A DNA stretch of 64,000 bases from Ignavibacteria bacterium. GTDB lineage: Bacteria; Bacteroidota; Ignavibacteria; Tepidaquicellales; OLB5. Within the stretch, counting starts at the first letter, position 1; each line of letters opens with the position of its first letter. The position numbers and the translations under genes were made by a program. The stretch covers positions 5,345 through 69,344 of the forward strand of contig JBHEKV010000094.1 in the NCBI GenBank assembly GCA_041859235.1. The letters run 5' to 3'. Under the pieces are notes generated by a model. It made no database searches. It was not told the DNA's origin and worked only from the letters and a program-made list of their open reading frames with translations. Positions 30,006 to 54,681 of this stretch are shown piece after piece.

Positions 30006-30087
30006 GGAGAGCTCGCATAATGGTATTGCAGCGGTCTTGAAAACCGCCGGGCGCAAGCCTGTGGGGGTTCGAGTCCCTCGCTCTCCG
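30006..30087 (+). tRNA. tRNA-Ser (anticodon UGA)
   Basis: Hand-folded cloverleaf. Acceptor GGAGAGC/GCTCTCC, anticodon stem GCGGT/ACCGC with loop CTTGAAA, 15-nt variable arm (GGC-GCAA-GCC), T-arm GGGGG-TTCGAGT-CCCTC, discriminator G. No encoded CCA. Confidence 0.85.
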
Positions 30088-38221: not shown

Positions 38222-40030
38222 ATGAATCTTCCTTCAGGATATAACGGCAAACTTTATACTTTGCTTGATGAAGTTCATAAGCTGAAATTCAGTGAGCCGC
38301 AGAAGGCGCTTGAACTTGCAAATTTTGTATATGTTCAGGCACTCAAATCTGCCGATGAAGTTCTTGAAGCCAACTGTTTATATGTTCTGGGGGTGTGCCA
38401 TGAGATCAGTTCGAGCTACCCGCAGGCGATGAAATTTCTTTCTGAGGCAATAAAACTTGCCCAGAAGCTTGGTGAAAAGAAGATCATGGGAGACGCGCTG
38501 AATTACGTGGGAGTGATTCATGACAACCTGAATAATTACTCAAACGCGCTTAAAGCGTATTTCAGAGCACTGAAGATATATGAAGATGTAAAAGAGAACA
38601 AAAAGACCGCTATTGTCCTTTCTAATATTGGTTTAATTTATACCAATATTAAAGATTACCGCAATGCCCTGAAGTTCTATTCTCATGCGCTTGATATCGC
38701 TGAAGATGAGAATGACACTGAATCTTTGCTTATCACGAACATAAATATCGGCTTGACGCATTCACAACTTGGCAATTTTGATGAAGCCCTTAAATTCCTG
38801 CATGATGCTTTTGGGCAGGCAACACGTTCAAACGATAAGCGCAGAACATCACTTGCGCTGGATCATATTGCCGATACAAATATAAAACTGAACAAGTTCG
38901 ATGAAGCATTCAGGCTGTTTGAAGAGAGCAGGAAACTTAAGTTGGAGCTCGAAGACAAGCGCGGTCTTGTAAAAGTATACAGTACGATCGGTCACCTGCA
39001 CCTATTGCAGAATAACATGTCAGAAGCAAGAGCCAACCTTGAAAAAGCGCTGGAACTTGCAGCCGAACTGGGAATAAAGAAATCTGTTCATGAACTCCAT
39101 AAACTTCTTGCTGATGCATATGAAAAAATAGATGATTCGGCGAAGGCTCTTTATCATTTGAAAATTGCGTACCGGAAAGAAATGGAGCTTCTGAGAGAAG
39201 AAGCTGAAATAAGGGCAAAGAACATTTCAACTCAGCTTGAAATTGAACAGGCCCAGAAGGAAGCGGAAATACAGCGGCTTAAAAACATAGAACTTGCCCA
39301 GGCATTGGAAGATGTAAAGAAGCTGAATGTAAACCTTAAGGAGCTTAACGATGAAAAAAATGAATTTATGGCAATTGCAGTTCATGACCTGAAGAACCCA
39401 TTGCAGAATATTCTTTCTACCGCAAGGATACTTAAAAGAAGCAGCGAACTTCCAAAATCTGAAATGGATGAATTTACAGGCAACATTATTAACCAAACTG
39501 ACAGGATGTTCAATATTATAAAAAAACTGCTTGACCATAATGCAATTGACCAGGGTGAGCTTAAGCTTAAAATATCAACTTTTGACGTGAACTTGTTAGC
39601 CGGAGAGATTATTTCAAATTTCAAAGAAGAGTCAGAAAGAAAGAAACTAAATCTTGTTCTGCACCAGGCGCCCGAAGAAGTTAATATCAATACTGATAAG
39701 GTTATACTTTATGAGATACTTCAGAACCTGGTTTCGAATGCGATAAAATTTTCGCCCGAAAATAAAAACATTACAGTAAGCGTATTTGCAGATGAGAAAA
39801 ATATAAAAGTGGAAGTCAGCGACGAGGGACCCGGTTTCAGTGATGAAGACAAACGAAAAATGTTCAGCAAGTTTGCAAGGCTAAGCGCTAAGCCGACCGG
39901 AGATGAACACTCAACAGGACTTGGACTTTCTATTGTGAAGAAACTCTGTGAACTTATAGGCGCAACCTTGAAACTGGATAGTAAACAAAATGAAGGGGCA
40001 AAGTTCACCATTTCTCTCAAGAACTGGTAG
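38222..40030 (+). CDS. Cytoplasmic TPR-repeat sensor histidine kinase, paralog 1
   Basis: N-terminal TPR-like repeats (ALNYVGVIH..Y..AL.YF..AL), a coiled coil, H-box AVHDLKNPLQNI, and HATPase_c (LVSNAIKFSP, DEGPGFS, STGLGLSIVKK). No TM segment. Confidence 0.82.
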   Translation: MNLPSGYNGKLYTLLDEVHKLKFSEPQKALELANFVYVQALKSADEVLEANCLYVLGVCHEISSSYPQAMKFLSEAIKLAQKLGEKKIMGDALNYVGVIHDNLNNYSNALKAYFRALKIYEDVKENKKTAIVLSNIGLIYTNIKDYRNALKFYSHALDIAEDENDTESLLITNINIGLTHSQLGNFDEALKFLHDAFGQATRSNDKRRTSLALDHIADTNIKLNKFDEAFRLFEESRKLKLELEDKRGLVKVYSTIGHLHLLQNNMSEARANLEKALELAAELGIKKSVHELHKLLADAYEKIDDSAKALYHLKIAYRKEMELLREEAEIRAKNISTQLEIEQAQKEAEIQRLKNIELAQALEDVKKLNVNLKELNDEKNEFMAIAVHDLKNPLQNILSTARILKRSSELPKSEMDEFTGNIINQTDRMFNIIKKLLDHNAIDQGELKLKISTFDVNLLAGEIISNFKEESERKKLNLVLHQAPEEVNINTDKVILYEILQNLVSNAIKFSPENKNITVSVFADEKNIKVEVSDEGPGFSDEDKRKMFSKFARLSAKPTGDEHSTGLGLSIVKKLCELIGATLKLDSKQNEGAKFTISLKNW

Positions 40031-40113
40031 TTAACTTACATAATAACATATACTTCCGTGTAACTTATTCACGTTATTCCATTTGTTCAAAACCCTTATA
40101 TCTTTACAGCAGA

Positions 40114-41889
40114 ATGAAAGCAGAATTTATCGATTTGCTTGAAAACGGGCAAAACTTACGAGAGACTAATCCGAATGAAGCTTTAAATTTTTTTGAAGAA
40201 GCATATAGAATTGCGTTATCTTCAGGGGATCAAAGCAATCAGCTTGAGGCTCTTTTTGAGCTTGGCGTTACCAAACATGATCTTTCGCTTCATTCAGAGG
40301 CGGTAGATCATTTCAGGAAAGCTCTGGGCAAAGAGTATGTACACGAGGATCTTTTTCTTAAATCCAACATCCTGAGATGCCTTGCTGTACAGTATATAAG
40401 ATTGAACAAAATTGAAGAGGCCATACACTTCCTTTACGAAAGCGAACGTGTAAGCATCAGCTGCGGCTATGATGAAAACCTGCATATGATAGAATCTACA
40501 TTGGGTTCAATTTACATCCAGCTGAAAATGTTTGAAAAAGCTCTGGAGCATGAACAGAGATCACTTGAACTGGCAAAGAAAATGAATTCAGAACCCATGA
40601 CCAATTATTCTTATCTTGGCATTGGTTCATGCTATTACCTGATGGGTGACCTGCATAACGCTGAAATTTATCTGAACAATGCAACAAGGGGCGAACAGAC
40701 CAATTACACAAAAGCTAACACATGTTACTATCTATCTAAGCTGTATTTTGATAAGAAGGATAACATGAATTCCCTGCGTTTTGCCGTTGAAGGAATTGCC
40801 GTTTCTGAAAAATATCTGATCCATGATTATCATGCGTTATGTACCGGAATGAAAGGTTCAATTTTTCTTGAATCCGGAGAAAGTGCTGCGGCAATATCAT
40901 TTCTGGAAGATGCCATAAGAATTTCGGAAAAGATAGAAAACAAAAGGATCTATTTCAGCCTTTACAAGGACCTGATAAGAGCGTACGAAATTACGGGTGA
41001 TTACAGGAAAAAAGCCGAAGCGTACGGGAAATTGTATGAATACCATATAGAGTACCTTGAAAATCAGTCAAAGCTGAAAATTAAGCAATTAAACACTCAG
41101 CACCAGATTGAAAAAGCCAGAGATGAGGCAGAAATTGAAAGACTCAAAAATGTTGAGCTAAGAGAAGCCCTGGATAACGTAAAAAAGCTCAATGGAGAAC
41201 TGGAGCTGCTTAACATGGAAAAGAATGAATTCATGGCGATCGCAGTACACGACCTGAAAAATCCGCTGCAGAACATTCTTTCAACCGCGAAGTTGATAAA
41301 GCGAAGCAGCCCTTCTGAAAGTGTTAGTGATCTTTCAGAAAATATAGTACAGCAAACTGACCGAATGTTTAATCTGATAAGGAAACTGCTTGATCATAAT
41401 ATTGCGGAAGAAGGAAAAATAAAGATTAGTAAAAGCGAATTCAGAGCTGAAACCGTAATGAGAGATATAATGAACGATTATAAGGAAGCAGCAGGACGAA
41501 AGCAGCTGAATTTGAATTTCGTAAATAATTGCAATGGCAATAAGCTGTGCACTGATTATGATATATTATACCAGATAATGTGCAACCTGGTATCAAACGC
41601 GATAAAATTCTCACCCAATAACAAAAACATCTTCCTTGGCCTTGCTTCAGAAAACGGATGGATAGAATATGAAGTCAGGGATGAAGGCCCGGGGTTCAGT
41701 GAAGAAGACAAAAAGAAGATGTACCGGAAATTTTCAAAGCTTAGCGCCCGGCCTACTATGGGTGAAAGTTCCACAGGGCTCGGGTTGGCTATAGCCAAAA
41801 AACTCAGTAAACTCATAAATGCAGAGCTTCAATTGGAAAGTGAGCCCGGTAGAGGGGCAAAATTCAGAATAATTATGAATACTGCATAG
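40114..41889 (+). CDS. Cytoplasmic TPR-repeat sensor histidine kinase, paralog 2
   Basis: Same architecture as paralog 1. The kinase core is near-identical in motifs (EFMAIAVHDLKNPLQNILSTAK, LVSNAIKFSPNNKNI). Confidence 0.82.
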   Translation: MKAEFIDLLENGQNLRETNPNEALNFFEEAYRIALSSGDQSNQLEALFELGVTKHDLSLHSEAVDHFRKALGKEYVHEDLFLKSNILRCLAVQYIRLNKIEEAIHFLYESERVSISCGYDENLHMIESTLGSIYIQLKMFEKALEHEQRSLELAKKMNSEPMTNYSYLGIGSCYYLMGDLHNAEIYLNNATRGEQTNYTKANTCYYLSKLYFDKKDNMNSLRFAVEGIAVSEKYLIHDYHALCTGMKGSIFLESGESAAAISFLEDAIRISEKIENKRIYFSLYKDLIRAYEITGDYRKKAEAYGKLYEYHIEYLENQSKLKIKQLNTQHQIEKARDEAEIERLKNVELREALDNVKKLNGELELLNMEKNEFMAIAVHDLKNPLQNILSTAKLIKRSSPSESVSDLSENIVQQTDRMFNLIRKLLDHNIAEEGKIKISKSEFRAETVMRDIMNDYKEAAGRKQLNLNFVNNCNGNKLCTDYDILYQIMCNLVSNAIKFSPNNKNIFLGLASENGWIEYEVRDEGPGFSEEDKKKMYRKFSKLSARPTMGESSTGLGLAIAKKLSKLINAELQLESEPGRGAKFRIIMNTA

Positions 41890-41987
41890 AATTTTCCGAT
41901 TGACAGAAATACAGAAGATAACTATTTAAAAAAACACTTATAGCCCGCATTACACTGGACGGGAAATCAAAAAAGAAATTATAATAT

Positions 41988-43814
41988 ATGAAAGACCTCT
42001 CAACTCTTATTGATGAAGGAACAAAGATAAGGCAGAACATGCCGGCGGATGCATTGGCAATTTTCAAAGAAGTACTCAGCGAGTCTGAGCTGAACTCTGA
42101 CGAACAATACCGGGCAATATCACTTTTTAACATTGCAATTACATATCTGATACTTACTGATTATGATAAGTCCATTTCATACTTCCATAAAGCGCTTAAG
42201 ACAGAGTATGTAATAAACAATCCGGAATTGAAATCGGAAATTCTGCGCGGAATAGCAGGAAATCATGCAAGAAAATACAATTACAGAGAAGCACTGAAGT
42301 ATTTTTACCTGTCAGAAAGCGCAAGTATACAATCATGGAATATGCCAAACCTGCATATGGTATACCAGGGTATAGCATCCTTGTACACCAAACTTAAACT
42401 TTATGAAAAGGCACTTTCATATACTCAACGATCTCTTGAAATAGCAATACAAAGCGGAGAAGACGATCCGCTGCAGGCATCACTGATGTCAATTGGGGCC
42501 TGTTATTATAAAATGAAGAAGTTTGAAAAGGCAAGAGAGTATCTTTATGAGTCACTGGAACTTTCGAGCAATGATTTCGCGGAAGCAAATGCTCTTCATT
42601 TCATATCACACATAAAGTTTGATGAGGGTAATTATGAAGAAAGTGAAAAGCTGGCATTAAGACAGATTGAGATATGCCATTTGAACAATTACTATGAATT
42701 CGAAGCGCTGGGTTTGAGACAGTTGGGAAGGATAAAATTCAAACATGGTAAATACCATGAAGCTCTGGAATACTTTCAGAAGACGCTGGATCTGGTCAAC
42801 TTTGGTGGTGACAGGACTATCAGGTTTGCTGCGCTGCAGAATATGATTGAAACATATAAAATAACAGGTGATAAAGATAAGATCATAGAACTATATCCTG
42901 TACTGTATAAAGAACACATCCGGCACCTTGAGGATGACATCCAGCTTAAGATAGAACAGATAGATCTTGAAAATGAAGCGGCTGCAATAAAAAGAGAAAT
43001 TGAAATTGAAAAAGAAAATAACACAAATTTAAAAAAAGCACTGCTGGAGGTTAATACGCTTAATGATGAACTTAAATTAATGCACGAAGAGAAAAACAAC
43101 CTTATGAGTATACTTGCACATGATCTCAAGAACCCGCTTCAAAGTATACTTTCTTCAATAAAACTGATGAACCAGGAAAAGGACGATAGTGAATTCCGTA
43201 AAGAGATGGAAAACAATATCAGGCAGCAATCTGTGAGAATGCTGAGCCTTATAAACAGGCTGCTGGATTACAGAGCGATTGAAAGCGGAAGTATTCCGCT
43301 TAATATCACTACTTTCGTTTCTAAAGAACTCTCAGAAAAATTAATGAAAAACGCGAGGATACAGGCTGTAAAAAAGGATATTGAGATAATCAGCGAGTGT
43401 ACCTGCGACGGAATGAAACTTGAAACTGATATGGAAATACTGTATCAGGTACTTGAAAACCTCCTGTCCAATTCCATTAAATTTTCGTCTCCGGGATCCC
43501 ATATCTATCTTCGCTGTTTCAAAGACTCTGAATACGATCTATTTGAAATTGAAGATGAAGGGCCCGGATTTTCAGAAAGCGATTTAAAGAAACTTTATTC
43601 CAACTTTGCAAAATTAAGCGCAAGACCAACAGGTAATGAACACTCTACAGGTCTTGGACTCTCTATTGTCAAAAAGCTGTGCGATCTGTTAGGCGCGGAA
43701 ATCAAGCTTGATTCTATACCTGATAAAGGATCAAAGTTCATAATTAAACTGAAAAGAAAAAATGAAAGAGAGCTACACAGTTCAGAAGTCACCCTTTGTT
43801 GTACCAACAACTGA
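41988..43814 (+). CDS. Cytoplasmic TPR-repeat sensor histidine kinase, paralog 3 (about 17 aa C-terminal extension)
   Basis: Same architecture (LAHDLKNPLQSI, LLSNSIKFSSPGSHI, STGLGLSIVKKLCDLLGA). The tail KNERELHSSEVTLCCTNN is absent from paralogs 1 and 2 and overlaps the next gene. Confidence 0.8.
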   Translation: MKDLSTLIDEGTKIRQNMPADALAIFKEVLSESELNSDEQYRAISLFNIAITYLILTDYDKSISYFHKALKTEYVINNPELKSEILRGIAGNHARKYNYREALKYFYLSESASIQSWNMPNLHMVYQGIASLYTKLKLYEKALSYTQRSLEIAIQSGEDDPLQASLMSIGACYYKMKKFEKAREYLYESLELSSNDFAEANALHFISHIKFDEGNYEESEKLALRQIEICHLNNYYEFEALGLRQLGRIKFKHGKYHEALEYFQKTLDLVNFGGDRTIRFAALQNMIETYKITGDKDKIIELYPVLYKEHIRHLEDDIQLKIEQIDLENEAAAIKREIEIEKENNTNLKKALLEVNTLNDELKLMHEEKNNLMSILAHDLKNPLQSILSSIKLMNQEKDDSEFRKEMENNIRQQSVRMLSLINRLLDYRAIESGSIPLNITTFVSKELSEKLMKNARIQAVKKDIEIISECTCDGMKLETDMEILYQVLENLLSNSIKFSSPGSHIYLRCFKDSEYDLFEIEDEGPGFSESDLKKLYSNFAKLSARPTGNEHSTGLGLSIVKKLCDLLGAEIKLDSIPDKGSKFIIKLKRKNERELHSSEVTLCCTNN

Positions 43815-44134: not shown

Positions 44135-45571
44135 TCAAAGCTTTCCCATTATCCACTCTTTGTGAAGCAGGTTCTCACAGATTTCCGCTTCAATTTTAAC
44201 ATCACCGGGGTTTACAAGCTTGCCATTCATTTTTCTCAAAACATCTCCCGTGTACTTAAGAAAATTAAGATGTCTTTCTTTCATAAAAGGGGTTATCATT
44301 GAGTTCTTGTTAAGGAAATGTCTGTAAGAATCGATGAATGACTCTGCCTGTTCAATATATCCCAATTCCACATAGTTTTTAAGGCTCCAGCTTTTTATAT
44401 CCATTTTCAGGATTATATAATCGTACTTAACTTTGTTTAGATCGCTCAATGAACCCTCAAAATCTCTCTTCAAAAATTTCAGCAGCGCATTCCCGTAATA
44501 ATACATTGATTCCGAATATTCGCTCTGCACTTTTGGTGAATATTCAGCAATAAACTTTTCAGCCCAGCCGATATTTCCCATATTGACAGCCGCTATGAGA
44601 ATATTTTTGAATCTTTGTGCAGTCATAGTTTCAGATTGGAAAGCATATGCATTTTTTTCCAGCATTTGCTCATACACAAAAAATATTTCCTGCCTGAACT
44701 TTGCGGTATTAAATTTATTGCGCATAAGGCAGCAAGATTCCAGGTAATGCAGAAAATGACAAGTTTCGTCTATGCTGAGTGAATCATTATAACTTCCGTA
44801 AGCTTCACGTAATGTATCATACTTCATATCGTTCTTTTCGTCTGTAAGCGCTTCAAGAAGGCAATAATGAAGGTATAGTATCTTATATTGTTCAGGTCTG
44901 AATTTCCTGAGATTTTCCATAAAACCTTTTAGATCCATTTTACCCATAAAATCCATCAGAAGATCATACTCATATCTTACATTAAAGGTTTTTTCATTTA
45001 TGATAATATCCTGCGCATTATGGATAAGTTCTATGATCATAAAATAAATAAGATTTTCTGACCTGCTCATAAGGTTATCGGCTACCTGCTGCTGCTTATC
45101 TTTCCTTAAATAATATTCCACATTAATTACTTCAAGCTCAAACATAGAAAAAAATCTGTCGCGGGCGTTCGCGAGACCTTCAGTTTTATCCACGGCCTCC
45201 TTAAAGTTGGTCCTGTAAAGGCTGTCTAATCCCCTGTTTCTCAGTTCCTGAAGCAAAGTGTTTATATCAACCGAATTGTCTTCAGTTCTCTTGTGAATTG
45301 ATAAAAATTCCTCCGATAACTTCAGAAGGTCGGAAAGAAGTATCCGTATAACAGTATCATTGAACTTCTTACCGGGGAACATTTTTCTAAAAATCTTTTC
45401 TTTTCCCAACAGCGGCGAGCTGTATTCAGGATGATGTTTCCTGATAATCTCAAAGAACCTAATGACATTTTTGTTCGAATTATGATAAGGCGAATGCACA
45501 AAATCCTTAAAAGATTTAAGTTCATCTTTGGAAAACGTTTTCAATACATCTATAAATTTGCTTTTAAGCAT
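44135..45571 (-). CDS. All-helical protein of unknown function (paralog family with 12738-14279)
   Basis: The N-terminus FIDVLKTFSKDELKSFKDFV...NKNVIRFFEII resembles 12738-14279. The helical-repeat C-terminus also resembles it loosely. Confidence 0.45.
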   Translation of the reverse strand: MLKSKFIDVLKTFSKDELKSFKDFVHSPYHNSNKNVIRFFEIIRKHHPEYSSPLLGKEKIFRKMFPGKKFNDTVIRILLSDLLKLSEEFLSIHKRTEDNSVDINTLLQELRNRGLDSLYRTNFKEAVDKTEGLANARDRFFSMFELEVINVEYYLRKDKQQQVADNLMSRSENLIYFMIIELIHNAQDIIINEKTFNVRYEYDLLMDFMGKMDLKGFMENLRKFRPEQYKILYLHYCLLEALTDEKNDMKYDTLREAYGSYNDSLSIDETCHFLHYLESCCLMRNKFNTAKFRQEIFFVYEQMLEKNAYAFQSETMTAQRFKNILIAAVNMGNIGWAEKFIAEYSPKVQSEYSESMYYYGNALLKFLKRDFEGSLSDLNKVKYDYIILKMDIKSWSLKNYVELGYIEQAESFIDSYRHFLNKNSMITPFMKERHLNFLKYTGDVLRKMNGKLVNPGDVKIEAEICENLLHKEWIMGKL

Positions 45572-45883
45572 TGCATAATTTATAACAAAATTTACTAAAA
45601 AAATAACTAAAAATGTGTAATAAACAGCTATTTTTCTTTAATTTTTGCACAAAGAGTTTTTACATGAATGAAAGAATTTTTATAACAAAAGCTCTTAAAA
45701 TTCCTGCCGTAATATTATTATAACAATTGTACATCCATACACTCAATACAATAGTTCCAATCTGCTTAAAAAAACCGCCTTTTCACAGGTCAACTTTTCA
45801 GAAGGAACTAAGCGGAGTTTGGAAAAGCGTAACAATACCAGATAATATTCTTTGCCGTATTGCTTTACGACAAATATCTTTGC

Positions 45884-45995
45884 AGAAAACCTGAATGACA
45901 CTTGAACAGAATAAAACTTGAACAGAATGAAACTTGAACTGATTGAAACTCAAGCCGAATGAAACATAAAGTGAGTGAAACCCAAGCTGAATGAA
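45884..45995 (+). repeat. Tandem array of seven 16-nt units (consensus ACTTGAACNGAATGAA)
   Basis: Units at 45884, 45900, 45916, 45932, 45948, 45964 and 45980. Units 2-4 are near-identical and the outer units more diverged. The last unit contains ATG 45991. Confidence 0.85.
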
Positions 45996-46188
45996 AGCTA
46001 AAACAAAGAGAATGTATACTGACTGCCAGGAGCATCCCGGGGAATTCAGATGTACGTTGTATATTTCAGGCAGAAGATCAGAAGTGTTGAAAGCAGCGAT
46101 AAGCCATGCGGTCGAGGCTCACGGTCATAAGAACACACCCGAACTTAAAAAACTGCTTAGCAAACAGCTGAAAACTGAAAAGAACTAA
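45991..46188 (+). CDS. DUF1059-like small metal-binding protein (alternative start at 46012)
   Basis: Pattern C-x4-PG-x3-C ... E..L......H....HG recalled from DUF1059. 65 aa from ATG 45991, or 58 aa from ATG 46012. Confidence 0.5.
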   Translation: MKAKTKRMYTDCQEHPGEFRCTLYISGRRSEVLKAAISHAVEAHGHKNTPELKKLLSKQLKTEKN

Positions 46189-46231
46189 GATCAAAAAAAA
46201 TAACCAATCCATTTAAGAAAGGACAAATAGA

Positions 46232-46531
46232 ATGATAGTTGTGAGAGACATTTTTCATCTTAAGTTCGGGAAAGCTAAAGATGCCCGCGAGCTCCTGAAA
46301 GAAGCAAAAGGTATAAACGAAAAATATGGTTTTGCCAATACACGGGCACTAAGTGATCTTGTTACAGGAAAATCCTATACGCTGATCCTGGAAAGCGAAT
46401 GGGAAGATCTGGGTTCGTGGGAAGCAGCAATGAAAAAAGGATTAGGGACAGAAGACTGGCAAAAATGGTACTCTAAATTTATCCCGCTTGTGGATTCTGC
46501 AGGCAGAGAGATACTGAATATTGTAGACTAA
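46232..46531 (+). CDS. Small alpha/beta protein of unknown function (paralogous to 49057-49371)
   Basis: Shares an h-FGK...A..l.KE...GF...TG...E..F.sl..fE.A pattern with the 104-aa protein at 49057-49371. A ferredoxin-like/NIPSNAP-type fold is suspected only. Confidence 0.4.
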   Translation: MIVVRDIFHLKFGKAKDARELLKEAKGINEKYGFANTRALSDLVTGKSYTLILESEWEDLGSWEAAMKKGLGTEDWQKWYSKFIPLVDSAGREILNIVD

Positions 46532-46573
46532 AAAAATCACTAAACCACACAAGGTGTGAAAGGAAAACAAATA

Positions 46574-46939
46574 ATGAGCAGCAAACCTGAAATAAAGAAC
46601 TTCAGCACGGCTGATGAAACCAGAGAATTTCCGCTTGGTAAACTGGAATTATTGAACATTGGCGGAGTGCCGATAGGCAAGGCTGTACTTCAGCCAGGCT
46701 GGAAGTGGTCTGACTCCGTGAAACCGATAGCGCAGACAAAAAGCTGCGAAGCACCGCATTTTCAATATCACATATCGGGAATATTAAGGATCAGAATGGA
46801 TGACGGAATGGAATATGATTGCAAACCGGGTGATATTTCAGTTTTGCCTTCCGGCCATGATGCCTGGGTAGTGGGAAATGATCCGGTAGTTCTTGTGGAC
46901 TTCCAGGGGATGAAAGAATACGCAAAACCTGCAAAATAA
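46574..46939 (+). CDS. Cupin domain protein
   Basis: Cupin beta-barrel pattern (H..Y..SG.........G......GD....P.GH.AW). ATG at 46574 is preceded by AAGGAAAA. The tracked GTG start at 46556 is less likely. Confidence 0.6.
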   Translation: MSSKPEIKNFSTADETREFPLGKLELLNIGGVPIGKAVLQPGWKWSDSVKPIAQTKSCEAPHFQYHISGILRIRMDDGMEYDCKPGDISVLPSGHDAWVVGNDPVVLVDFQGMKEYAKPAK

Positions 46940-46973
46940 TTATTTAAAGTTCACTTAAACTAAAATAAGAAAT

Positions 46974-47234
46974 ATGAACAGATACATGGTTGAAACTTCA
47001 CATAACAGAGAAGATTGTCTGCACATTCTTGATGAATTTGTTATACACGGTCATATCACGCATTTTGACTGGGGCTGCGAAAGCGGAGTCTGCACAGGAT
47101 GGGCGGTAGTTGAGGCAGAAAGCGAAGAGCAGGCATTGTATTCAGTACCGGCATTGATAAGAAAAAAAGCAAGGGTCATCAAACTATCAAAATTTACACC
47201 GGAAAAGATCCAGGAATTCCATGACGAAACATAA
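46974..47234 (+). CDS. Hypothetical protein (86 aa, Cys/His-containing)
   Basis: ORF only. It sits in a co-directional gene string and has no recognised motif. Confidence 0.35.
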   Translation: MNRYMVETSHNREDCLHILDEFVIHGHITHFDWGCESGVCTGWAVVEAESEEQALYSVPALIRKKARVIKLSKFTPEKIQEFHDET

Positions 47235-47245
47235 ATCACACAATA

Positions 47246-47647
47246 ATGAAAATCAATAACATGAAATACTCAACTTTTTTAGTATACATATTTATCATTT
47301 TTTCGGGTTCATCAATTTATTCCCAAAATTGGGAAGATACAGACCCTAAAATGACAAATGTCATTGTAGATACAATGCTAATTAAATCTACGATCGCAGT
47401 AATTGAACCAGGAGAAAAGAGTAAACCTCATACTCATCCGGCGCACTTTTTCTACGCATTAACAGACGGAAAGATAAAAATTCATTATAATGACGGAACA
47501 AGTGTAGTAATGGAATTAAAGTCCGGCGATTACGGATTTTCAAACCCCGAAGGGCTGCATCAAACCGAGAATATTGGAGATAAAACGCTGAGATTCCTAA
47601 TTGTTGAGCTTAAAGAACATCCGTATAATGAATCTGAAAAAAAATAA
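47246..47647 (+). CDS. Secreted cupin domain protein
   Basis: Signal peptide, then the cupin motif (GEKSKPHTHPAHFFYALTDGKIKI...GDYGF...LHQTENIG). Confidence 0.6.
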   Translation: MKINNMKYSTFLVYIFIIFSGSSIYSQNWEDTDPKMTNVIVDTMLIKSTIAVIEPGEKSKPHTHPAHFFYALTDGKIKIHYNDGTSVVMELKSGDYGFSNPEGLHQTENIGDKTLRFLIVELKEHPYNESEKK

Positions 47648-47658
47648 AACTTCTGAAG

Positions 47659-48441
47659 ATGAGAACTTCTGAAATACAGGGCAAGTTGTGGGGAACTTTT
47701 GCAGAAAGTTGGGCAGATCATGGAGAAGCAACATCTAATGATCTGTTCAAAACAGTGCTCGCTAAAATTATACATTCGGGAAGAGGAAAAAAACTGCTCG
47801 ATGCCGGCTGTGGTGCAGGAGGTTTCTGTAAAATGGCTTATGATGAAGGGTTTGATGTAAGAGGATTTGATGCAAGTGAGCCGCTAATCAAAATTGCCCG
47901 CAATAGAATGCCTCGAACAGAATTCCTTACCGGAGATCTGGAAGAACTGCCGTACAACGATAATACTTTTGATACCGTTACCGGATTTAATAGTTATCAG
48001 TATGCAGGAGATATTGTAAACGCTCTAAAGGAAGCGAAACGTGTCACCAAAAAACATGGTAAGGTAATAATTACAGTTTGGGGTAAGCCGGAAGATTGCG
48101 ATGCTACGCAAATATTTTCTGCACTGGCCCAAATTATGCCGCCTCCACAAAATCCAACGGGAAGGCCGCCTTTATACAATAATGGAAGCCTTGACAATTT
48201 TGCATCAGAAGCTGGACTAGCACCTGTAAAAAATGAAGACATAGTATGCTTATGGAAGTTTGAAAATGAAAGTTCTGCTCTTAAGGCTATACTGTCAGCA
48301 GGATTAATAGCAATTGCCATAAACAATGCAGGAGAAGAAAAAGTCAGGGAAACGGTTAGAAACGCTGTAGCGCAATTCAAAGGTCACGCCGGTAATTATA
48401 TACTTAAGAATTCTTTCAAGTGTTTGGAAGCTGAAGCATAA
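47659..48441 (+). CDS. Class I SAM-dependent methyltransferase
   Basis: SAM-binding motif I LLDAGCGAGGF, acidic post-I residue, and the FD.V....S.QY pattern. Confidence 0.8.
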   Translation: MRTSEIQGKLWGTFAESWADHGEATSNDLFKTVLAKIIHSGRGKKLLDAGCGAGGFCKMAYDEGFDVRGFDASEPLIKIARNRMPRTEFLTGDLEELPYNDNTFDTVTGFNSYQYAGDIVNALKEAKRVTKKHGKVIITVWGKPEDCDATQIFSALAQIMPPPQNPTGRPPLYNNGSLDNFASEAGLAPVKNEDIVCLWKFENESSALKAILSAGLIAIAINNAGEEKVRETVRNAVAQFKGHAGNYILKNSFKCLEAEA

Positions 48442-48455
48442 TTCCTCTGTAAATC

Positions 48456-52546: not shown

Positions 52547-53734
52547 TTATTCGAATAATACATTAATATCTAATTTTATGAAATCTTTCCAGCTGATAGT
52601 ATCATTGCTTATTACAATATTTTTAAATGTTTTAAATTTACTTGCAAATTCAGTCTGACCTTTATTATTTCTCATATTACCTGATTTTACTTCCAGTGAA
52701 ATCAATTTACTGCCTTTTTTTAAAATAAAATCAACTTCATTGTTTCCTTCCCGCCAGTAAAATAAATTAATATTATTAACTCTGCATTGATTTAACAAAT
52801 AACCTCCAATTGCCGATTCTATCAACCTGCCATAGATCGCATTTCCTGGTTCAAGATCTTTTTGACTCATGTTAGAATAAACATTAAAAAATGCGTTATT
52901 GTAAACATTCCATTTAGGAATTGAATTTCTTAAGTTAATTCTAGAACCAGAATATTTTTGCAGACCTGATATAAACCAAATTTTATCAAGCAGATACTGA
53001 TATTGAACCAGAGTAATTGTATTTCCTTTATCACTTAAATTTCCAATTATTTTAGTATAAGATAGTATTTGCGATGAATATAAACATCCAACTTCAAATA
53101 AATTTTTCAATAAGGCAGGCTTTTTGATATTAGTCAGCATTACAATATCTTTTGAAATAGTAGTTTCAATAATTGAATTCAGGATGTAGTCTTTCCATCT
53201 TTTTTCATCATTGATAAGAACCGCGGAACCCGGATAGCTGCCGAAGTAAACATACTGATCTTCAGTGAAACCGAATGCCTCATGCATTTCGTTATAATCC
53301 CAATGAGGCAGATATATTATTTCAAATCTTCCGGTAAGCGATTCCGTCAGACCTTTATCGATTAATAGAGCTGAAGAACCGAGTAAAATAACTTTAACAT
53401 TCAAATTATTTCTTCTATCTTCATCCCATTCTTTCTTAACAGCATCACTCCATTTATCAATTTTCTGGACTTCATCTATTACGAATAAAACGGTCTCAGC
53501 CCCAGTTGTTTTCAGTTTTATTCTTGCAGCTTCCCATTGGGAAGCGATCCAGTTGGAATCACTTGATGGAACATTATCTGCAGTTGAAAATTGGAAAGGA
53601 AAATCAACATATTTCAACAATTGTTCTACCAAAGTAGTTTTACCAACCTGCCGTGTACCGGAAAGAATTTGAATATGATTGGTCTTTTCTTCTATGCGAT
53701 TTCTTAATATCTTAAGCTGTTTTCTTTCAAACAT
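52547..53734 (-). CDS. AAA-family ATPase (AAA_14 + DUF4143-like architecture)
   Basis: Walker A GTRQVGKTTL, Walker B VLFVIDEVQ, and a C-terminal EVDFIL...ISLEVK nuclease-like tail, typical of this family. Confidence 0.7.
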   Translation of the reverse strand: MFERKQLKILRNRIEEKTNHIQILSGTRQVGKTTLVEQLLKYVDFPFQFSTADNVPSSDSNWIASQWEAARIKLKTTGAETVLFVIDEVQKIDKWSDAVKKEWDEDRRNNLNVKVILLGSSALLIDKGLTESLTGRFEIIYLPHWDYNEMHEAFGFTEDQYVYFGSYPGSAVLINDEKRWKDYILNSIIETTISKDIVMLTNIKKPALLKNLFEVGCLYSSQILSYTKIIGNLSDKGNTITLVQYQYLLDKIWFISGLQKYSGSRINLRNSIPKWNVYNNAFFNVYSNMSQKDLEPGNAIYGRLIESAIGGYLLNQCRVNNINLFYWREGNNEVDFILKKGSKLISLEVKSGNMRNNKGQTEFASKFKTFKNIVISNDTISWKDFIKLDINVLFE

Positions 53735-53871
53735 TTAAGTTAGTATATTTTACTAAGTCTAATGAGTAAAATTACTAATTCTAATGAGTAAAATCAAGCT
53801 ATTGACCATAACTTATTGATTTTTCGTTATTGATACTAATATAATCTCTTAGTAAACAAACATAATTTAAT

Positions 53872-54681
53872 ATGGTACCGAAAGATTATTCGGAAGATTC
53901 AAAGAATTTCTATTTGAATGAACAGAACAAAAAAATTCAAAAAGAACTTGAAGAAAAATATGGAATGCAGGGTTCCGGTGTTTCTGATGATGCATCCCCG
54001 GAAATAATGAATAATTTCCTGAATTATGTTCAACAATTTGAGGAACAGTGGGAAAAGGCTCAAAGAAAAAAGATCAGAGAAATACTCGGCAATCCAATAT
54101 TCAGGAAAATAGAAGACATCAAACCGGATAAAATTGAAGATGAAATCAATTTTGTTTTACAAAAGTATGCAGAAAAGAACTTCAATATTGATATTATTGA
54201 AAAAGATGATGTTAAACCAGGAGACTTCTATATATTCCTAACCGAAGAATTAATGGAACATGAAACTGATTTTATCAGTATCCCGGGCATGAATACAAAT
54301 TTCATTTATGAGGAATTTCACCCCAGCCCAAAACTTAACATTAAGGATTGCGTGGAATATTTTCACTGGGGTTTGAAGAACAAAGATAAAGAACAAACTT
54401 TATTATGGTCAGCAAAAGAAAACATTGCGCTTAATAACATTAGTTATGATAGAGATGAATTTGCTCTTAATTTGTTTAAATTATTCCCGGATAATATAGA
54501 AGAAACCAAAATAAATTTTAAAGAAATCAATATAAATGATCTGAAAGCACAAATTGAGCTTATCATTAATTTTAAATCCGGAGATAAAGACAGATCTGAA
54601 ATATACAATATCATATTTGAGTTTAATAAAGTTGATGCGGATTATATGGAAGTAAGATCCGTCGAAATTATTAATATATAA
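53872..54681 (+). CDS. Hypothetical protein (269 aa, acidic/Lys-rich)
   Basis: ORF only; no recognised motif. Confidence 0.35.
   Translation: MVPKDYSEDSKNFYLNEQNKKIQKELEEKYGMQGSGVSDDASPEIMNNFLNYVQQFEEQWEKAQRKKIREILGNPIFRKIEDIKPDKIEDEINFVLQKYAEKNFNIDIIEKDDVKPGDFYIFLTEELMEHETDFISIPGMNTNFIYEEFHPSPKLNIKDCVEYFHWGLKNKDKEQTLLWSAKENIALNNISYDRDEFALNLFKLFPDNIEETKINFKEININDLKAQIELIINFKSGDKDRSEIYNIIFEFNKVDADYMEVRSVEIINI

Follow-up and report, generated by a model that had tools for sequence, protein, structure and literature searches.

A tandem array of start-like 16-nt units forms the predicted leader of a DUF1059-type gene in an Ignavibacteria bacterium

The window, by which we mean the whole 64-kb stretch of Ignavibacteria bacterium DNA that was analyzed (64,000 nt), contains a gene for a 65-aa protein at 45991..46188 on the forward strand. 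The gene was assigned to the DUF1059 family using a family alignment and Pfam. Taken alone, the window protein scores 18.9 bits against DUF1059 (PF06348), which is below the Pfam cut-off of 21.1, and 24 out of 24 aligned homologues match the family at an E-value of 0.01 or better (best 1.7e-9). Judging from these matches, DUF1059 membership of the gene holds at the family level. The label ‘DUF1059-like’, given to the gene by an earlier annotation made from the letters alone (the sequence-only reading), is therefore a fair one. Arg7, Asp11, Cys12, Pro16, Cys21, Gly27, His39 and His44 are invariant in the family. Since Arg7 is invariant and an in-frame TGA (45988-45990) lies immediately upstream, ATG 45991 is the true start codon, in agreement with the start proposed earlier. 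The gene is followed on the same strand by four small co-oriented genes (46232..47647) coding for a 99-aa unknown protein, a cupin-like protein of ~121 aa, an 86-aa unknown protein and a cupin. As the spacers are short, these genes probably share the transcript of the DUF1059-type gene.

The surroundings of the locus have several features of their own. Three consecutive co-oriented sensor histidine kinases of ~600 aa are encoded just upstream (38222-43814); the third one has TPR repeats, and no adjacent response regulator was recognized. A divergent gene (44135-45571, reverse strand) codes for a 478-aa protein for which neither Pfam nor NCBIfam gave a match even at E = 5 and whose exact sequence is absent from a collection of 15 billion proteins. 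Just upstream of the start of this gene there is an AT-rich tandem repeat with a 12-13-nt unit (AATTTACTAAAAA, three copies, 45577-45613). The divergent intergenic region also includes a 10-mer, TGAATGAAAG (45665-45674), identical to the start region of the DUF1059-type gene (45988-45997); this copy, located 323 nt upstream, opens a 19-codon ORF. Farther away, a 22-nt tandem repeat (TTACTAAGTCTAATGAGTAAAA, two copies with 95% matches, 53750-53794) sits between the divergent genes 52547-53734 (reverse strand) and 53872-54681 (forward strand).

The start of the DUF1059-type gene is embedded in an array of seven head-to-tail 16-nt units (45893..46004, forward strand). We describe the array in the register GAATGAAACTTGAACA, in which every unit consists of a GAnTGAAAC core and a variable 7-nt tail; the 16-nt period is strict and indels are absent. 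The array occupies the entire predicted leader and extends into codons 1-5 of the gene. Its first unit (GAATGACACTTGAACA, 45893..45908, forward strand) is polymorphic and is missing in strains L005-L009. It is followed on the same strand by unit 2 (GAATAAAACTTGAACA, starting at 45909), unit 3 (GAATGAAACTTGAACT, 45925), unit 4 (GATTGAAACTCAAGCC, 45941), unit 5 (GAATGAAACATAAAGT, 45957), unit 6 (GAGTGAAACCCAAGCT, 45973) and unit 7 (GAATGAAAGCTAAAAC, 45989), the last of which holds the real start codon, ATG 45991, together with codons 1-5. The sequence-only reading had placed the beginning of the array at 45884. Its seven-unit, 16-nt period was right, but the first ‘unit’ in that register is only half a unit.

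That the tandem repeats are real is evident both from the strict period in the sequence and from the results of Tandem Repeats Finder. The program reported a row with period 16 (45893-45965, 82% matches, score 90), a row with period 32 (45925-45996, 85% matches, score 102) and a second, weaker period-16 row over the 3′ part of the array (69% matches). TGAAAC at the exact 16-nt spacing occurs five times in the array compared with 0.66 occurrences expected from shuffles. The sequence-only reading had proposed a search for the 16-mer at other places; neither the spaced TGAAAC core nor further copies of the unit were found elsewhere in the 64-kb window. The core GAnTGAAAC taken singly has five other copies in the window versus 2.9 expected overall, which is approximately the chance level, and these copies are never arrayed. 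An assembly artefact was rejected as the source of the repeats, since the array is identical in two further assemblies and is present with six units in five others. A coding repeat was rejected as well, given that the unit length of 16 is not divisible by 3 and that none of the three frames is open. A CRISPR-like reading, suggested by the resemblance of ATTGAAAC to a crRNA handle, was discarded because the 16-nt period is far too short for a repeat plus a spacer. Finally, an ORF on the minus strand (45865-46035) was taken to be a by-product of the repeat.

The units have not diverged uniformly. Units 1-3 are nearly identical, and units 4-7 have mainly the 9-nt core GAnTGAAAC in common. Two post hoc comparisons, the cells of which are not independent because the units share ancestry, describe this pattern: in units 3-7, mismatches occur at 3 of 45 core positions (positions 1-9) versus 12 of 35 tail positions (Fisher p = 0.003), and three of the five core substitutions fall in the start codons of out-of-phase units, with none in the in-phase ATGs (p about 0.02). 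The start-codon changes are T and G at position 3 (units 4 and 6, respectively) and A for G at position 5 (unit 2). By comparison, the similarity of the tails has fallen to a near-random level (2-5 of 7 positions identical). Conservation of the core, taken together with the weakening of out-of-phase starts, is suggestive of ribosomes ‘seeing’ the array.

A Bacteroidota-type promoter with the pattern TTTG-N20-TAnnTTTG was mapped on the forward strand directly before the array. It consists of a -33-like TTTG (45851..45854) and a -7 element TATCTTTG (TAnnTTTG, 45875..45882), so that TTTG-N20-TATCTTTG spans 45851-45882. We take TAnnTTTG to be the Bacteroidota -7 promoter element, in keeping with established knowledge of Bacteroides and Flavobacterium promoters. 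In the window it precedes many genes, often in the form of TATATTTG, as well as the tRNA at 30006. Both promoter elements are invariant in related strains, and the spacer has a substitution. Since the promoter ends 10 nt upstream of the array, the repeats very probably lie within the transcript. The predicted transcription start is at approximately 45886-45889, corresponding to a leader of ~100 nt. There is no other TAnnTTTG between 45883 and the gene, either inside or after the array. Matches to sigma-70-type promoters inside the array were disregarded, as the promoters of the organism are of the TAnnTTTG type.

The leader is A-rich (47% A), and its folding (MFE -12.4 kcal/mol, z = -0.57) is no better than that of shuffled sequences, for which reason a riboswitch, a thermometer and an attenuator were all rejected. 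No Rfam family matched anywhere in the window at the gathering threshold, and a search of the 45550-46300 region up to E = 10 produced only noise. No terminator-like site was found between the array and the gene.

The arrangement of start and stop codons in the array is highly regular. The in-phase units (1, 3, 5 and 7) retain ATG, whereas the out-of-phase units 2, 4 and 6 have ATA, TTG and GTG, respectively. Unit 3 opens uORF-a (MKLELIETQAE*, 45927..45962, forward strand), which is in phase with the gene and the stop TGA of which overlaps the ATG of uORF-b. In turn, uORF-b (MKHKVSETQAE*, 45959..45994, forward strand) ends with a TGA overlapping the ATG of the gene. The resulting ATGA stop/start overlaps at 45959-45962 and 45991-45994 represent the 4-nt overlap of coupled uORFs, and the -1 frame step between the successive ORFs is exact (frames 0, 2, 1). 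The sequence-only reading had this layout exactly right. Its list of mini-ORFs was correct for both uORFs but missed three others on the forward strand. The first of these (MTLEQNKT*, 45895..45921, 8 codons) starts with an ATG and is present only in the seven-unit lineage; ATG 45895, ~6-9 nt away from the predicted 5′ end, is in a poor context and scores -0.8 with the position weight matrix (PWM) introduced below. The other two begin at out-of-phase unit starts weakened to TTG (45943..45969, 8 codons, ending at TAA) and to GTG (45975..46001, 8 codons, ending 8 nt inside the gene).

Because the unit carries ATGA and 16 = 1 mod 3, this staircase of ORFs is largely a matter of arithmetic. The TGA two units on begins 33 nt after the A of an ATG and hence is always in frame. 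More generally, any ATGA-containing repeat with a period of 1 mod 3 will give rise to ATGA-linked ORFs unless a stop codon intervenes. The staircase by itself thus cannot be taken as independent evidence of design. Of the five ORFs that begin at upstream unit starts, only two reach an ATGA junction, and the probability that by chance these two would be the well-placed ATG ORFs is about 0.1. The weakening of the out-of-phase ATGs makes sense, because ribosomes starting at them would run past the real start in the wrong frame.

The contexts of these start codons were compared with those of other genes. The 41 gene starts in the window have no G-rich Shine-Dalgarno (SD) peak and instead show peaks of A at -3, -6, -12 and -13. 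This profile matches the determinants measured in Flavobacterium johnsoniae, in which the A-rich SD-less start pattern has been shown experimentally to promote initiation (PMC6847099). In the array, NTG corresponds to unit positions 3-5, and AAA at positions 6-8 and A at position 13 are invariant. Relative to the NTG of the next unit, the AAA and A13 of each unit occupy positions -13 to -11 and -6, respectively. In this respect every unit has the appearance of a complete initiation region of the SD-less type used by the organism. We scored the contexts with a PWM derived from only the window's own 41 starts. The best initiation context of the locus belongs to ATG 45927 (5.7, the 99.4th percentile of non-start ATGs). 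It is followed by the out-of-phase TTG 45943 and GTG 45975 (3.6 each), the real start ATG 45991 (2.8) and the in-phase ATG 45959 (1.5), compared with a mean of -4.2 for other ATGs. By this 41-gene PWM the upstream ATG contexts score like genuine starts of the organism, and initiation at them is a prediction. Bacteroidetes starts normally have fewer AUG triplets around them than expected (PMC6847099), and it is therefore unlikely that three well-placed upstream AUGs would be silent to ribosomes.

Variation among related strains provides another view of the array. Repeat-number polymorphism, which the sequence-only reading had suggested looking for in such strains, does exist. Seven units are present in the window and in two further assemblies, L001 and L002 (3 of 3 assemblies, the array being identical in all), and six units in L005-L009 (5 of 5 assemblies, representing five samples). 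At the level of assemblies, therefore, copy number is constant within each lineage. The six-unit strains are ~97% identical to the window over 2.4-4.7 kb. The two forms differ by a clean 16-nt indel corresponding to the 5′-most unit (window 45893-45908). Both uORF-a and uORF-b, as well as the ATGA junctions, are intact in both lineages; a His-to-Tyr change in uORF-b of the related strains leaves the ORF open. Gain or loss of a single unit had been expected to break the relay of ORFs. The natural indel removes the 5′-most unit and does not do so, and breakage is expected only for internal units. Variable sites between the lineages number 4 of 82 in the array versus 8 of 113 in flanking intergenic DNA; from these counts the array is not clearly less polymorphic than its flanks.

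One more genome of the same species, a MAG labeled Chitinophagaceae bacterium (L003, DASZPW010000443.1), lacks the repeat region because its contig ends 18 nt into the gene. The strains also differ at the end of the gene cluster. The window lineage has a gene for a 260-aa SAM-dependent methyltransferase (47659-48441), which in L003 and L005-L009 is replaced by ~19 nt, amounting to an indel of ~830 bp (window 47626-48455).

Beyond the species, the array was not detected. A word-indexed search for homologues returned members of the same species only, while an exhaustive search yielded 420 relatives, the nearest of which beyond the species is 59% identical. Neither a tandem repeat nor a comparable staircase of upstream ORFs was present in any of 80 homologous metagenome loci (at most 58% identity), and the repeats are likewise absent from the nearest low-GC relatives and from one GC-rich genome homologue. 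All of these homologues have ordinary leaders, most of them with GGAGG and at most one upstream ATG. As far as these comparisons reach, the array is young, local and confined to one species. Its absence from the 80 homologous loci and from the nearest low-GC relatives means that long-term selection cannot be demonstrated.

Two other sequence patterns were recorded in the course of these searches. At the gene start, the low-GC homologues L043 (2470-2510) and L048 (2480-2515), with ~47-55% identity, carry ATGAAATGA, a two-codon mini-ORF (M-K-stop) with its TGA overlapping the real ATG, which is a one-step miniature of the array geometry. A scan of viral contigs for spaced TGAAAC returned 50 loci, approximately half of them with several matches 40 or 48 nt apart. 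These matches are parts of longer tandem repeats, many of them in giant-virus bins; the repeats with spaced TGAAAC on giant-virus and phage contigs (L092, L102, L104, L116, L131 and L137, among others) are unrelated to the locus.

The explanation that we favor, at about even chances, is that the leader represents a reiterated initiation region in which in-phase upstream starts would hand ribosomes to the real start. The simplest origin suggested by the sequence is tandem duplication around the gene's own start. According to this scenario, the SD-less initiation region of the gene (16 nt from -2 to +14) would have undergone serial tandem duplication, and the 16-nt module would later have been copied as a 32-nt pair and then again as 16-nt units at the 5′ end. 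The array would be transcribed as the entire unstructured leader. With each unit providing the start codon of the next one with the upstream adenines described above (-13 to -11 and -6), ribosomes could potentially enter at every unit. The presence of AUGA in the unit and the period of 16 (= 1 mod 3) mean that a ribosome initiating at an in-phase upstream AUG would terminate exactly on the next in-phase AUG. Hand-over could then proceed by termination-reinitiation from 45927 to 45959 and on to 45991. We infer the use of the upstream AUGs and the reinitiation from this geometry; how strongly, and in which direction, expression would be affected is likewise conjectural.

A termination-reinitiation relay had already been considered in the sequence-only reading. 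What stands of it is the classic ATGA geometry, to which start-like contexts and an upstream promoter can now be added; the staircase itself, as discussed above, does not count as separate evidence of design. To our knowledge, SD-less reinitiation is undemonstrated in Bacteroidota. The array may be tolerated and may work as an extended ribosome-loading and relay leader, and the relay could possibly make the duplication harmless or mildly beneficial. Nothing in the sequences compared shows that the array is a conserved regulatory switch.

The main alternative, which we consider distinctly less probable, is that the array is a neutral product of slippage. It would then be a recent tandem duplication with no effect on expression, its upstream starts being unused or irrelevant and its conservation reflecting shared ancestry and chance. 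Restriction of the array to one species is consistent with such an origin, and so is the polymorphism of six versus seven units, which affects precisely the stretch of nearly identical units, as would be predicted for replication slippage. The array shows no significant reduction in polymorphism, and the staircase follows arithmetically from ATGA and the period of 16. The neutral explanation, however, is at odds with the uneven divergence of the units: the tails have become near-random while the 9-nt core is almost invariant, and the core substitutions concentrate on out-of-phase start codons. In addition, ribosomes of an organism that does not use SD-directed initiation are unlikely to pass over unstructured, A-rich AUG contexts whose scores resemble those of real starts. 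AUG is normally under-represented near Bacteroidetes starts (PMC6847099).

The same features may also be given a stronger interpretation, namely, that of a selected modular ‘multi-start relay leader’. The repeats would enlarge the capture area for ribosomes, the combination of 1 mod 3 and AUGA would funnel in-phase entries to the real start, out-of-phase starts would be selectively weakened and unit number would set the expression level. We regard this version as doubtful.

Somewhat more doubtful still is the possibility that the array serves as a set of binding sites, with GAnTGAAAC being recognized either in the DNA, just downstream of the promoter, by a repressor or activator, or in the leader RNA by a protein of the S1, Csp or CsrA kind. 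The array does have a core conserved at fixed spacing with varying spacers, and operators and translational repressor sites are typically located as it is, directly after the promoter and across the start codon. The helical geometry can be read both ways. The 32-nt super-period equals ~3.05 helical turns and thereby puts alternate units on the same side, whereas 16 bp corresponds to 1.52 turns, so that neighboring sites are on opposite faces. The remark of the sequence-only reading that the period does not fit simple helical phasing thus remains valid, with only alternate units in phase. Other observations speak against binding sites. Outside the array the core is at about the chance level and never forms another array in the 64 kb; no recognizable DNA- or RNA-binding gene, and no DNA-binding domain, adjoins the locus; the repeat unit has no dyad symmetry; and the array is absent upstream of all homologues examined. 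Binding sites would also leave unexplained why A is kept at position 3 in the in-phase units while the out-of-phase start codons are disrupted.

Least probable is a contingency locus or rheostat, in which frequent gain and loss of units would switch or tune expression as in Haemophilus or Neisseria repeats: strains of one species do differ by one unit and units 1-3 are similar enough to slip, but copy number is identical across the assemblies of each lineage (three with seven units, five with six), contrary to the repeat-number-dependent switch put forward earlier, the units are not the near-perfect repeats of phase-variable loci (69-82% matches, only units 1-3 being nearly identical) and such imperfection suppresses slippage, and the observed indel leaves both the in-phase relay and the start context of the gene untouched.

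We also compared the array with known systems, from each of which it differs in unit, structure, copy-number behavior or distribution. The closest mechanistic parallel to the proposed reiterated initiation region is ATGA translational coupling (PMC6728339, PMC12548453). Experiments in E. coli and Haloferax volcanii have demonstrated termination-reinitiation at 4-nt overlaps, and SD motifs are generally absent from overlapping gene pairs of Bacteroidetes (PMC6728339). A short coupled uORF ‘delivering’ ribosomes has been proposed as a route of initiation (PMC12548453). The array has in common with these cases the 4-nt overlap, a short upstream ORF ending on the next start and, as in Bacteroidetes overlaps, no SD requirement. 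Unlike the coupling of adjacent genes, it is predicted to involve two or three consecutive hand-overs and is built of tandem copies of one 16-nt initiation module inside a leader.

Two kinds of short repeats near start codons are also similar in part. The (ATCTTTC)n repeats of H. influenzae hmw1A/hmw2A (PMC12721329) represent a 5′-UTR tandem repeat that, like the array, lies between promoter and start and varies in copy number among strains. However, they are perfect 7-mers in at least 11 copies, are hypervariable and form a long RNA hairpin cut by RNase III. In contrast, the array consists of imperfect 16-mers in six to seven copies, is predicted to give unstructured RNA, includes start and stop codons and is stable within lineages. 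The TAACTGA heptamers of Beggiatoaceae, Cyanobacteria and some Bacteroidetes (PMC4679880) are likewise short direct repeats located directly 5′ of start codons. Both they and the array contain stop codons, have a period of 1 mod 3, lack canonical ribosome-binding sites and are suspected of a role in translation. The heptamers, however, occur genome-wide at many genes and contain no start codon, whereas the array is found at a single locus, and its 16-nt unit probably derives from the start of the gene itself. No TAACTGA repeat was found in the window.

Finally, the leader resembles the ‘Kozak-like’ initiation regions of Bacteroidia (PMC6847099) in being unstructured and A-rich, with A at -6, -12 and -13. 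Normal initiation regions of this type are depleted of extra AUGs, whereas the array leader has three upstream AUGs as well as UUG and GUG in good context. Our literature search, the coverage of which was incomplete, turned up no bacterial leader described as consisting of repeated start regions.

Should ribosomes make no use of the relay, the array would be an ordinary minisatellite that varies among strains. If they do use it, the locus would be a natural case in which termination-reinitiation proceeds serially across two or three uORFs, and this in a bacterium lacking SD-directed initiation. It would mean that slippage duplicating a start region that contains AUGA and has a length of 1 mod 3 can add upstream starts harmlessly, and a compact, tunable leader design would be conceivable. 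Use of the relay would also bear on the choice of start sites in Bacteroidota, in which selection normally acts against extra AUGs near starts.
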